A DNA stretch of 64,000 bases from Candidatus Hodarchaeota archaeon. GTDB taxonomy: Archaea; Asgardarchaeota; Lokiarchaeia; Sigyniarchaeales; SOKP01. Below are positions 59,881-62,692 of the stretch, in pieces. The stretch is taken from assembly GCA_048886685.1 (NCBI GenBank), contig JBHLKM010000012.1, positions 17,576-81,575 on the forward strand, written 5' to 3'. The translations under genes were made by a program, and so were the position numbers. The notes under the pieces are model-generated. The model had not been told where the DNA came from. It did no database searches and worked only from the letters and a program-made list of their open reading frames with translations. Numbering within the stretch: the stretch's first letter is position 1; the number at the start of each line of letters is the position of its first letter.

Positions 59881-60267
59881 TTATTCTTCTACTTGCTTAA
59901 TTGCGCCAATAGATCTCCACCCTAACCAAAAAATAAGCATTACTATTATAAATATGAATAGAGTAGTGGCAAATACGTACCCTCCAACAAAGAGATCAAC
60001 TATGATTAAAAATGGAATACCCGCAATGGTAAATCCTAGCATATATCCATACCCCCAGTATCTGTTTTTTAATCCAATAATAACCCCTGGAATGATTGTT
60101 GTAAAAATCACTGTTAAATATGACCAAATTGCCATTGAATTAAAAATTATAATCATATTTATCCAAGAAGCAAAAAATCCTATAACTATCCAGAATACTG
60201 TGAAAATAGTAAATTTAAACTCGGGTTCTGGTCGTCCTACTGTTTGTTCTTTTTTCTTGCTTGACAT
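59881..60267 (-). CDS. small 4-TM membrane protein
   Basis: 128 aa, four hydrophobic segments. Confidence 0.7.
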   Translation of the reverse strand: MSSKKKEQTVGRPEPEFKFTIFTVFWIVIGFFASWINMIIIFNSMAIWSYLTVIFTTIIPGVIIGLKNRYWGYGYMLGFTIAGIPFLIIVDLFVGGYVFATTLFIFIIVMLIFWLGWRSIGAIKQVEE

Positions 60268-60509
60268 AATTTAATTCATATTACCACTTTTCAATCTTTA
60301 TATTCAAATAATTCTTTATAGAATTAAAACTATTAACTATTAACTACTATTCCTCTTCAATTCAAATAAAAACTAGTTAGATTATAGATTTAATTTATAA
60401 AGATCTGATCATATAATATCTTTAGGATGAAAATTTTTCATTAAAATATAATTGATATCCACACAATTTGTATTTAAAATTAACCAATTAAAAATCAAAA
60501 TAAAAATAT

Positions 60510-60655
60510 GCCTCCTGCCTACACCCTGGATTTTTGTCTTTTGGTAGTGTAAATTTTTACACTCTGATTTCGCCCTCCAAGGTGATGGCACTCCCATGCC
60601 TGGGGAATCCCCCTATTGTATTTTTTGACGCGTATTGCGTCCGTTGGCAGGAGGC
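60510..60655 (-). ncRNA. unidentified structured RNA
   Basis: GC-rich island; 10-bp terminal helix GCCUCCUGCC/GGCAGGAGGC enclosing four stems; G-U pairs and a GGGA tetraloop favour the minus strand; U-rich run follows. Confidence 0.7.
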
Positions 60656-60952
60656 TCCTTTTATTAAAAAAATATCCAATCTTCAATTAATTGGGTCGCT
60701 TTAATAGCTTTAGCATATGAAATTTTTTACCCTCTAGTATCTTTTAATTCAAAATGTTTATGGTTTCATGGGGAAACCTTAATAAAAAACAAGTAGTTAA
60801 GAGCCTAAATTTTTGATTTTATTAAGAATTTGTAGCTTTTTTAATAATATCAATGATATTAACATAGATATTATTAAGTTTAAAAGATTTGAATATTTAT
60901 TTAAATACTAATTTAATTAAATATATAATTATAGAATATAATATTGATTCAA

Positions 60953-62692
60953 ATGACTGAGCTCGAAACTCAAACTACTAAAAAAGAAAAAAAACACTAT
61001 GAAATAATACGAACTACGACATCTCTTTGCCCCGATTGTATGAAACATATTCCTGCTGAAATAGTTGTCGATCCCGAAACAAACTGGGTAATGATGGTGA
61101 AGAGTTGTAAAGATCATGGAGAATTTAAAGACAAACTGTCGATTAATTCAGACGATTACAAGTGGCAGCAGAGGTTTACAACGGAGATAGGGTCTACGGT
61201 CAATAATACAACAAAACCAGAGTCAGTCTCCTCTGGAATTAAAGAAATCAACAAAGGATGTCCTTATGATTGTGGACTCTGTACCAATCATCAAAGTGCT
61301 CCAAATATTTGTTTAATAGATGTTACCAACCGATGTAATCTTACTTGTCCTATTTGTTTTGCCAACGCAAGTGCAAAGGGATATGTTGTCGAACCTACTT
61401 TTGATCAAGTTGTACAAATCATGGAGCATTTTCGATCAATGAAGCCTGTTCCTGCTGTTTTACTTCAATTATCAGGCGGAGAACCAACCGTGAGAGATGA
61501 CCTCCCCGACATTATTCGAAAAGGAAAAGAGTTAGGATTTACTGAACTTATGGTGACCACTAATGGCGTTAGGTTTGGTAAAGATCCTGAATTTCTAAGA
61601 AAATGCCATGAAGCAGGAATGAATGCTATTTATTTACAATTTGATGCAACAGATTCTCCTGAAATATGGAAAAAGATAAGAGGTGTGAATTTATGGCCTC
61701 TTAAAAAGAAAGTCATCGAAAATAGTCGTAAAGTCGGATTTTTTGGCGTTATTTTAGTACCAACTGTGGCAAAAGGAGTAAATGATAATCAAGTTGGTAA
61801 TATTTTAGATTATGCGAGAGATAATTCTGATGTCATTTCAGGAGTTATTTTCCAACCTGTCTCTTTAACTGGTCGTATTAGCTTCGAAGAACTAATGGAT
61901 ATACGATATACAACATCTGATCTTAAAGAAGCAATAAATAAACATACTAATGGAGCAATCGGACAATTTTACCCTATCGCGACTACCGCAAAGATGACTC
62001 AATTACTCGCTTGGTTTGATGAAATGCCTGCTTTTAGCATGACAAGCCACCAAGATTGCGGGTTTTGCACAATAGTTATCGTCAACGACAAGGGAGAGTG
62101 GGAAGCTATCGAAGATTACTTTGATATAGAAGGTTTAATCAAGTGGTCGAATAAAGTATGGGATATGGTTCAAGAACGCGAGATTCCTAAACCTACTGGA
62201 TTGCTTAAAGGCCTGCATTTAGATGATTTTGGAAAAATCTTTTCTAAAATAGGCGAATTTGTCGATGATATGACCGATTTAGGTTATAGACAGGTAATTA
62301 AGGCATATTATTTCGCGGGTGCAGCGCGTTACATCAAAGATCCTGCTAAAATTCTTACTAGCAAAACCTATCAAGGATTTGCACGACTGATAATGAACCC
62401 TAACTTTAATTCTGCCGCGAATTTCTTGCATACACGCAATTTACTCATATCAAGTATGCACTTCCAAGATTCATATAATTTTGATCTTGACAGAGTTTGT
62501 CGTTGCCTCGTTCATTATGGTGTAATAGATCCAGAAGATCCTGCAAAGGTTCGAGAAATTCCCTTCTGCGCCATGAATACGCTTCACAGACCAATAATAG
62601 AAAGACAGCTTGCAATTGAAGGTCAAACAGCAAAGAAACCTGAAGTGATTCAAGCAGAAATCGAGGAACTCTTAGAAAAGTTCCAAGAATAA
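60953..62692 (+). CDS. tes: tetraether lipid synthase (Tes / GDGT-MAS) family radical SAM enzyme
   Basis: SLCPDC...C..HG, GCPYDCGLC, DVTNRCNLTCPICFA, GGEPT, FQDSYNFD..RV.RC, IPFC. Confidence 0.88.
   Translation: MTELETQTTKKEKKHYEIIRTTTSLCPDCMKHIPAEIVVDPETNWVMMVKSCKDHGEFKDKLSINSDDYKWQQRFTTEIGSTVNNTTKPESVSSGIKEINKGCPYDCGLCTNHQSAPNICLIDVTNRCNLTCPICFANASAKGYVVEPTFDQVVQIMEHFRSMKPVPAVLLQLSGGEPTVRDDLPDIIRKGKELGFTELMVTTNGVRFGKDPEFLRKCHEAGMNAIYLQFDATDSPEIWKKIRGVNLWPLKKKVIENSRKVGFFGVILVPTVAKGVNDNQVGNILDYARDNSDVISGVIFQPVSLTGRISFEELMDIRYTTSDLKEAINKHTNGAIGQFYPIATTAKMTQLLAWFDEMPAFSMTSHQDCGFCTIVIVNDKGEWEAIEDYFDIEGLIKWSNKVWDMVQEREIPKPTGLLKGLHLDDFGKIFSKIGEFVDDMTDLGYRQVIKAYYFAGAARYIKDPAKILTSKTYQGFARLIMNPNFNSAANFLHTRNLLISSMHFQDSYNFDLDRVCRCLVHYGVIDPEDPAKVREIPFCAMNTLHRPIIERQLAIEGQTAKKPEVIQAEIEELLEKFQE

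Follow-up and report, generated by a model that had tools for sequence, protein, structure and literature searches.

Locus and fold of the element

In a 64,000-nt stretch of contig JBHLKM010000012.1 from Candidatus Hodarchaeota archaeon (the window; coordinates are window positions), a gap of 684 bp separates an open reading frame (ORF) for a 128-aa membrane protein with four transmembrane segments (4-TM; 59881-60267, minus strand) from the gene tes (60953-62692, plus strand). The tes product carries Radical_SAM and HMPTM zinc ribbon domains and corresponds to a radical-SAM tetraether synthase, and the 128-aa protein did not match any Pfam family. Inside the gap lies an island at about 60500-60660 with a GC content of 0.43-0.48, compared with 0.10-0.29 in the gap flanks. 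Our analysis shows that this island is one gene copy of an uncatalogued family of structured small RNAs and forms a self-contained intergenic unit.

The initial annotation had described the island as an unidentified multibranched RNA of 146 nt on the minus strand, and every helix that it listed was recovered at its position in the minus-strand fold. This fold has a minimum free energy (MFE) of -66.8 kcal/mol, compared with -35.7 +/- 3.8 kcal/mol in 200 dinucleotide shuffles, none of which equalled the native value (z -8.25). The plus strand folds into the mirror structure with a z of -6.6 against dinucleotide shuffles. The core domain (60510-60655) is closed by helix P1, in which the 5' strand GCCUCCUGCC (60510-60519, plus strand) pairs with the 3' strand GGCAGGAGGC (60646-60655, plus strand) in 10 out of 10 Watson-Crick pairs; the 3' strand is supported by the fold and by covariation. 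On the plus strand, P1 encloses a single-stranded box (60524-60545; CCCUGGAUUUUUGUCUUUUGGU on plus, ACCAAAAGACAAAAAUCCAGGG on minus) that was defined by invariant columns in 25 copies, the hairpin P3 (GUGUAAA/UUUACAC, approximately 60546-60563), a C-rich tract and the hairpin P2 (GACGC/GCGUC, 60627-60641). According to the alignments, the C-rich tract is divided by a 29-nt insert (60579-60607) into a 5' half CGCCCUCC (60571-60578) and a 3' half UCCCCCUAU (60608-60616), and most copies continue from the 5' half directly into UCCCCCUAUU. The minus-strand fold further contains a GGGG/CCCC hairpin (60602-60612), a GGCAU-GGGA-GUGCC hairpin (60587-60600) and a helix CACCUUGGA/UCCAGGGUG (60576-60584 with 60522-60530).

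Comparison of homologous copies places this structure far beyond chance, with compensatory changes in all three helices P1, P2 and P3. Using a model-guided alignment of 100 copies, which is fitted to the covariance model and thus favours the structure, we found 24 out of 25 modelled pairs changed on both sides (411 cells). This covariation was not reached in any of 500 column shuffles, and 90.5% of the cells were paired, compared with 36-45% when the partners were slid by 1-3 columns. Changes on both sides affected all 11 modelled pairs of P1, all 5 pairs of P2 and all 7 pairs of P3. The sequence of P1 is entirely different among paralogues, with strands such as GGGAAAUCUGAC, GCUCCCGAU or CUUCUCCGCCC. 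P2 is missing in one genus and P3 varies in length.

The most strongly conserved part of the element is unpaired. A 20-nt single-stranded box between P3 and P1 (ACCAAAAGACAAAAAUCCAGG on minus, CCUGGAUUUUUGUCUUUUGGU on plus) is essentially invariant across at least 10 genera. Its core 17-mer GGAUUUUUGUCUUUUGG is present without any change in 95 of the 100 copies, and the 22-mer box is identical in all four copies of this genome. A second single-stranded tract, the C-rich one (AAAAUAGGGGGAGGAGGGCGAAAUCAG on minus, CUGAUUUCGCCCUCCUCCCCCUAUUUU on plus), is conserved in the main type and replaced in other paralogue groups. It is missing in whole groups, for example in the one beside a 281-aa gene, and therefore does not represent the common function of the family. 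A 14-codon plus-strand ORF MPPAYTLDFCLLVV (60507-60551), which overlaps P1 and the box, was rejected as a small protein gene: no more than 28 of 95 copies have an in-frame ATG, and none of the three codon positions of this frame varies in the box.

A 26-nt stretch with 92% identity to the box and the P1 3' strand was also noticed on contig C44 of this genome (6966-6991; L006). It sits in a 470-aa ORF for a low-complexity protein rich in Pro, Lys and Asp, and similar chance matches were seen in the viral contigs L136 and L139.

A multicopy family in one lineage of Asgard archaea

Further copies were found by BLAST and by the covariance model built from the family. This genome contains four of them, namely the window copy and three more on contigs C24 (17206-17323), C7 (79026-79143) and C8 (66638-66761), and related genomes contain between 1 and 7. 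Family members are about 106-155 nt long, with typical copies of about 125 nt (120-130 nt). The model separates the family cleanly at 25-150 bits and matches the window copy at 113 bits. Matches were obtained in 77 of 80 genomes of the host family, which were drawn from 10 genera, in 2 of 14 genomes of the sister family, both from one genus, and in none of the 5 genomes of two further families. A phylum-wide sample gave the same picture: all 14 genomes of the host family matched, and none of the 105 genomes from 26 other families did. These data show that the RNA family is inherited vertically in one family of the Promethearchaeia (Loki-type Asgard archaea).

The position next to tes is conserved across genera. 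At least 56 of the 80 fetched tes loci carry the element upstream of tes in constant orientation, at a distance of 192-1022 nt (median 341) from tes and about 220-290 nt from the start of the 4-TM gene. Core identity at this locus amounts to 94-97%, in contrast to flanks that cannot be aligned. The tes-locus copy is syntenic across genera and, as judged from sequence comparison, under strong purifying selection.

One divergent full-length copy (30.6 bits) was located at the very start of the 225-kb contig IMGVR_UViG_3300029288_000001, which is filed as viral (L138:20-145). This contig may be a host fragment, a provirus or a mobile element that carries the RNA. A viral origin of the family was considered and rejected. 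Three of four exact 19-mer matches in viral contigs were chance matches inside low-complexity coding DNA, and the remaining one belonged to this divergent full copy.

Known RNA families did not account for the element. Rfam 15 gave no match at gathering score in the whole window, and at E<=10 across the gap nothing was found over the element and only chance-level matches away from it. Six loci with other copies were searched at E<=1 and also gave no match, and ARAGORN predicted neither a tRNA nor a tmRNA gene in the window. A full-text literature search did not find a paper on this RNA family. The initial annotation could not match the island to tRNA, signal recognition particle RNA, RNase P RNA or common riboswitches, and the empty Rfam and ARAGORN searches agree with this. 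Its proposal of a novel stable non-coding RNA holds in part: a genuine, conserved structured element without a catalogued family is present, but it is not a unique 146-nt RNA and instead one copy, enlarged by an insert, from a multicopy family with a usual length of about 125 nt. A perfect hairpin GGTTTC-ATGGG-GAAACC is located at 60765-60781, in the stretch that separates the element from tes. It gave a sub-threshold match to the Histone3 stem-loop (19.6 bits against a gathering score of 34), which almost certainly arose by chance.

The 29-nt insert makes the window copy longer than typical copies. Both the GGGG/CCCC and the GGCAU/GUGCC hairpin arise from it, as does the partner strand of UCCAGGGUG at the end of the invariant box. 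The insert is absent from 24 of 25 aligned copies and from the nearest relatives, whose Tes proteins are 89-93% identical. Four species of another genus (L042-L045) carry an insert at the same site of the same tes locus. Both versions share the junctions GGGGGA|UUCCCCAG...CUU|GGAGGG, and the hairpin sequence in the four species differs and is internally compensated. An interpretation of the insert as a separate mobile unit was discarded, as this genome does not contain a second copy of it. In the modelled fold of the window copy the insert would fold back onto both single-stranded segments. Insert-bearing variants can be regarded as natural masked versions of the RNA, which makes them useful for structure-function tests.

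Transcribed strand and alternative explanations

We infer transcription of the element, its strand and both RNA ends from sequence features. The combined explanation that we favour, and regard as reasonably likely, is an uncatalogued family of small-RNA genes that is transcribed from the plus strand and acts in trans through the invariant box. Taken by itself, transcription of the core domain from the plus strand, in the same direction as tes but independently of it, appears probable, with the minus strand as the alternative; the assignment draws on the fold, the covariance model and the strand arguments given below. The minus-strand assignment of the initial annotation is thus probably wrong: promoter-like architecture, wobble asymmetry and neighbour spacing favour plus, in contrast to a U-run and the G-U pairs of the insert, which favour minus.

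Wobble asymmetry was assessed on those distinct helix variants in which a single interior transition mismatch is flanked by Watson-Crick pairs. Such mismatches read as G-U in 38 cases on the plus strand and in 17 cases on the minus strand (raw cells 108:39), and all three helices contributed in the same direction (plus to minus 27:13 in P1, 3:2 in P2, and 8:2 in P3). With the minus strand as the RNA, there would be about two A-C mismatches for every wobble, unlike the situation in structured RNAs.

Promoter-like signals were found on the plus-upstream flank. A conserved purine motif, RGRYARAAAUU, gave 143 hits on this flank, and 40 of them are preceded by the word TTTA[AT]A at a distance of 28-37 nt, with a peak at 30-32; on the other flank this holds for 2 of 82 hits. 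Many of these TATA-like boxes read TTTAAATA or TTTATATA in the plus direction. Upstream of the minus strand, no TATA-like peak at a fixed distance was detected; hits amounted to 2-3 per 5-nt bin between -40 and -20. The module was also present at loci where the gene on the plus-upstream side is convergent (L096, L097, L084, L047, and L108), which leaves nothing else there for a promoter to drive. Neighbouring genes whose 3' end faces the element lie at a median distance of about 200 nt on the plus-upstream side and of about 90 nt on the other side, and the wider spacing fits a promoter and leader there. The plus-upstream flank at the tes locus contains a block of about 50 nt that is conserved across genera, in contrast to the opposite flank. 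In the window this block contains a candidate TATA box TTTATAAA (60389-60396, plus strand) 31-35 nt upstream of the purine motif at 60424, and the predicted start region AGGAUGAAAAUU (60424-60435, plus strand) is a member of the conserved motif RGRYARAAAUU. A promoter of its own, at a distance of about 85-120 nt from P1 on the upstream side, would accordingly drive the RNA in the same direction as tes, independently of it. Its candidate 3' end is the short U tail CUCCUUUU directly after P1 (60656-60663, plus strand), a weak terminator. A sequence AAGATAAAAATTTAAAT found in several genera looks like a BRE (transcription factor B recognition element)/TATA sequence itself; in this case the start would shift about 25 nt downstream with the direction unchanged.

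The block at 60389-60435 was observed in several genera as TTTATAAR-N23-AGGATGAAAATT, and the intervening TAATCATATAC-like stretch is conserved as well. It may constitute a compact divergent promoter pair with the 4-TM gene on its left side and the small RNA on its right. In some genomes of genus g14 (L172, L176) two tandem occurrences of AAGATAAAAATTTA[AT]AT, spaced by about 41 nt, precede the element, and here the P1 5'-strand segment AAAATGAC(T/A)CCT is duplicated just before P1.

The plus-upstream flank also shows a relation to the core. It carries a short copy of the minus-strand internal tract and is hence complementary to the tract on either strand, and this flank segment tracks the variants of the tract among lineages (ACAAAAUAGG, AUAAAAUAGGG, AUACAAUAG, and AUUAAAUA). 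The purine motif RGRYARAAAUU is complementary to the U-rich box. Read from the plus strand, the leader of many copies could therefore mask one exposed segment or both. In the window copy the leader motif forms a local hairpin instead, and the masking would fall to the insert, which pairs with the end of the box and, through GGGG/CCCC, with the C/G tract.

Several observations weigh against transcription from the plus strand. Runs of at least six T within 15 nt after P1 occur in 23 of 100 copies on the minus strand compared with 1 of 99 on the plus strand, and runs of at least five T in 37 of 100 compared with 18 of 99. On the plus strand, only a short run of U3-4, CCCUUU(U), is found at the 3' end; the flank consensus CCC-UUU is conserved in 72-84% of the copies. 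G-U pairs in the insert hairpins and in the CUUGGA/UCCAGG(G) pairing (window, L043, and L044) exist only on the minus strand and read as A-C on plus. Likewise, the conserved flanks AAAGGG and UnUUU lengthen P1 through G-U pairs only on minus, and the fold of the window copy gains 5-6 kcal/mol in stability on this strand. The wobble ratio of 38:17 is far weaker than in well-studied RNAs and was derived from copies that are not phylogenetically independent. Finally, TATA-like words are common in an AT-rich genome, and the candidate box TTTATAAA is palindromic and could serve the 4-TM gene. Thermodynamic comparisons of the strands were not counted as evidence, because whole-molecule and duplex energies track base composition. 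Whole-element MFE favoured plus in 88 of 100 copies. Helix-only energies were mixed (plus against minus 57 to 41 for P1 and 56 to 38 for P3, with the difference in P2 coming from loop terms), and duplex energies between flank and internal segments favoured plus for the U-rich box and minus for the G-rich tract.

These observations define the most serious alternative, namely the same family read from the minus strand, which we consider possible but clearly less probable. The RNA would then be purine-rich, multibranched and A-linked, and it would end at the U-run AUAUUUUUAU just after P1 (60500-60509, minus strand), which under plus transcription is an A-run in the leader. Its exposed GGGGGAGGAGGG tract could act as a Shine-Dalgarno mimic, i.e. 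as a decoy for the 30S subunit or the anti-Shine-Dalgarno sequence, and ACCAAAAGACAAAAAUCCAGG could serve as a recognition site for a protein or RNA. Apart from the U-runs, the strand-specific G-U pairs and the stability of the window copy, this alternative draws on the complementarity of GGAGG to GGAUCACCUCCA, the 16S rRNA 3' end of a relative, and on the A-rich linkers, which are typical of structured RNAs. It has to accommodate the missing TATA-like peak on its upstream side, the excess of interior A-C mismatches, stop codons of upstream neighbours as near as 19-60 nt, and conserved flank sequences that would fall downstream of the presumed terminator.

A steady place in the 5' UTR of functionally related genes on the same strand would be expected if the element were a cis-acting leader, i.e. 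a riboswitch or attenuator of the 4-TM gene on the minus strand, as suggested in the initial annotation, or of tes on the plus strand. The closing helix around a conserved core is aptamer-like, the element at this locus always lies between the divergent tes and 4-TM genes, and many orthologues do not show a strong T-run before tes on the plus strand. Across 100 copies, however, all four gene arrangements were found (-/+ 33, +/+ 23, +/- 17, and -/- 15), of which the 17 +/- copies lie between convergent genes. The neighbours are functionally unrelated and comprise an HhH protein, an Ldh_2 dehydrogenase, a methyltransferase, a CAP12/Pycsar-type TIR protein, a zinc transporter of the cation-diffusion-facilitator type, and unknowns. 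Moreover, the start of tes is preceded by a separate TTTAAATA at a distance of about 50 nt, and no known riboswitch model matched. This makes a leader very unlikely, and regulation of the 4-TM gene in cis does not agree with the family as a whole. The more specific idea of a riboswitch controlling a CrcB-like 4-TM gene was dropped, as the 128-aa protein is without a Pfam match and other copies precede unrelated genes. Among the neighbours, the TIR protein with a CAP12/Pycsar-type effector domain (258 aa, L061:123-899) directly adjoins one paralogous copy in another genus.

A purely DNA-level repeat, i.e. a miniature inverted-repeat transposable element (MITE) or another palindromic mobile element with P1 as its terminal inverted repeats and no RNA function, was rated just as improbable. 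Dispersed copies, part of what the initial annotation had named as the mark of a MITE, do exist; several per genome are bounded by an inverted repeat, the helices hold both G-U and A-C mismatches, and one divergent copy stands at the start of the 225-kb contig from the viral collection. Target-site duplications, the other part, are missing: the longest direct repeat in the 20-nt flanks averaged 4.79 nt, compared with 4.47 nt for mismatched flanks. The number of 1-7 copies per genome, the conserved synteny of the tes-locus copy across genera under strong purifying selection, and the covariation of P2 and P3, which terminal repeats do not need, also argue against a mobile element, and no transposase gene was found beside the copies examined. 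The family therefore resembles MITEs and small palindromic repeats in its dispersed copies and inverted repeat, and differs from them in the lack of target-site duplications, low copy number, stable orthology and covarying internal hairpins. Least likely of all, and hardly conceivable, is a permuted, split or highly diverged piece of tRNA, signal recognition particle RNA, RNase P RNA or 5S rRNA. This idea of the initial annotation takes its support from context only, as a permuted 5S gene is reported elsewhere in the window. Neither ARAGORN nor Rfam gave any signal over the element, even at the permissive thresholds given above, P1 does not show a visible bulge-helix-bulge motif, and multicopy status together with an invariant box that is specific to the family does not agree with any of these RNAs.

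Possible partners and significance

An RNA that is present in nearly all genomes of one family and contains an unchanging 20-nt box must have a conserved partner. Provided that the plus strand is transcribed, the exposed segments would be the U-rich box GGAUUUUUGUCUUUUGG and a C-rich, anti-Shine-Dalgarno-like tract. We propose that the RNA acts in trans through the invariant box, onto which a conserved partner might dock; this partner could be a ring of Sm-like (SmAP/LSm) proteins or a purine-rich RNA. In the main type, the tract containing CCUCC could in addition pair with Shine-Dalgarno sequences, in line with the 16S 3' end GGAUCACCUCCA of a relative. Both Sm-like docking and antisense pairing are putative mechanisms.

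Between P1 and P3 the plus strand reads GGAUUUUUGUC. Its R-A-U5-G fits the pattern RAU(4-6)GR except for the last position, which is U and not a purine, and the fit depends on the plus strand being the RNA. Four LSM-domain genes are encoded in this genome. One candidate partner was a 138-aa protein on contig C15 (12503-12916; L140:704-1117) with a weak LSM and a clear Lsm_C domain, which is SmAP3-like and occurs in 92 of 100 genomes of the order. It had been considered as a family-specific LSM paralogue, as the weak LSM match was first seen only in the host genus, and was rejected in this role because it turned out to be the order-wide Lsm+Lsm_C protein. Two results weigh against the proposed mechanism. 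No signal of co-occurrence was obtained for the RNA and an Sm-like partner, since the Lsm+Lsm_C protein is found order-wide, also in families in which the RNA was not found. Furthermore, no gene start in this genome contains a target with at most four mismatches to the 22-nt box. A near match to the purine tract was not found at the gene starts of this genome either. For rRNA complementarity only the 16S 3' end was recovered, and rRNA genes were mostly masked or absent in the relatives tried.

No 16S or 23S rRNA gene was detected in this genome, and ARAGORN found only 14 tRNAs at a reported marker completeness of 100%. Stable-RNA genes are thus largely unassembled here or unusual (introns, permutation). 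The 14 tRNAs are too few to build a promoter model of tRNA genes.

The family is new and falls within a known kind of small structured RNAs that act in regulation or in ribonucleoproteins (RNPs). Sm-, LSm- and Hfq-associated RNAs, i.e. Sm-class small nuclear RNAs (snRNAs), archaeal SmAP-bound small RNAs (sRNAs) and bacterial Hfq-dependent sRNAs, are similar in several respects. On the plus strand the family has a single-stranded A-U5-G between a helix and a hairpin, it is small and multicopy with a predicted own promoter and a short U tail, and its hosts encode LSM-domain proteins. It differs in that the box ends with GU and not GR and continues with CUUUUGG, that the LSM proteins occur throughout the order irrespective of the RNA, and that nothing points to a role in splicing. 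Y RNAs offer another comparison: the 5'- and 3'-ends of the family form a long stem around a pyrimidine-rich interior with small hairpins. Further shared features are a length of about 100-150 nt, the presence of several paralogues in a genome, and a short run of U at the 3' end. Unlike in Y RNAs, the conserved bulged helix that binds Ro was not seen, and neither Rfam Y_RNA nor bacterial Y-like models matched. A TROVE/Ro60 gene (PF05731) was not found in this genome, in contrast to control genomes, which gave matches.

C-rich seed regions are known from sRNAs such as RsaE/RoxS of Firmicutes and from sRNAs of Methanosarcina mazei that mask ribosome-binding sites. Similarly, the exposed CCUCC tract on the plus strand could pair with Shine-Dalgarno sequences, and the genes are intergenic with a predicted own promoter. 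In contrast to these sRNAs, the tract is missing in whole paralogue groups of the family, and a target was not found.

That the box GGAUUUUUGUCUUUUGG is a true Sm site, and that the family forms RNPs with a SmAP/LSm ring in a Loki-type Asgard lineage, is a doubtful proposition. If it were correct, the family would be a prokaryotic, multi-paralogue analogue of the layout of Sm-class snRNAs, consisting of a closing helix, an Sm site and a 3' hairpin, with built-in self-masking by the leader or by an insert as seen in the window. An Sm-like ring as partner would have a direct bearing on the origin of Sm-class RNPs. Independent of this, the main interest of the family lies in its Asgard host range, the invariant box and the natural masked variant in the window. 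Very few non-coding RNAs besides the universal ones have been described in Asgard archaea. Identification of the partner would give access to a lineage-specific part of RNA biology in those prokaryotes that are the nearest known relatives of eukaryotes.

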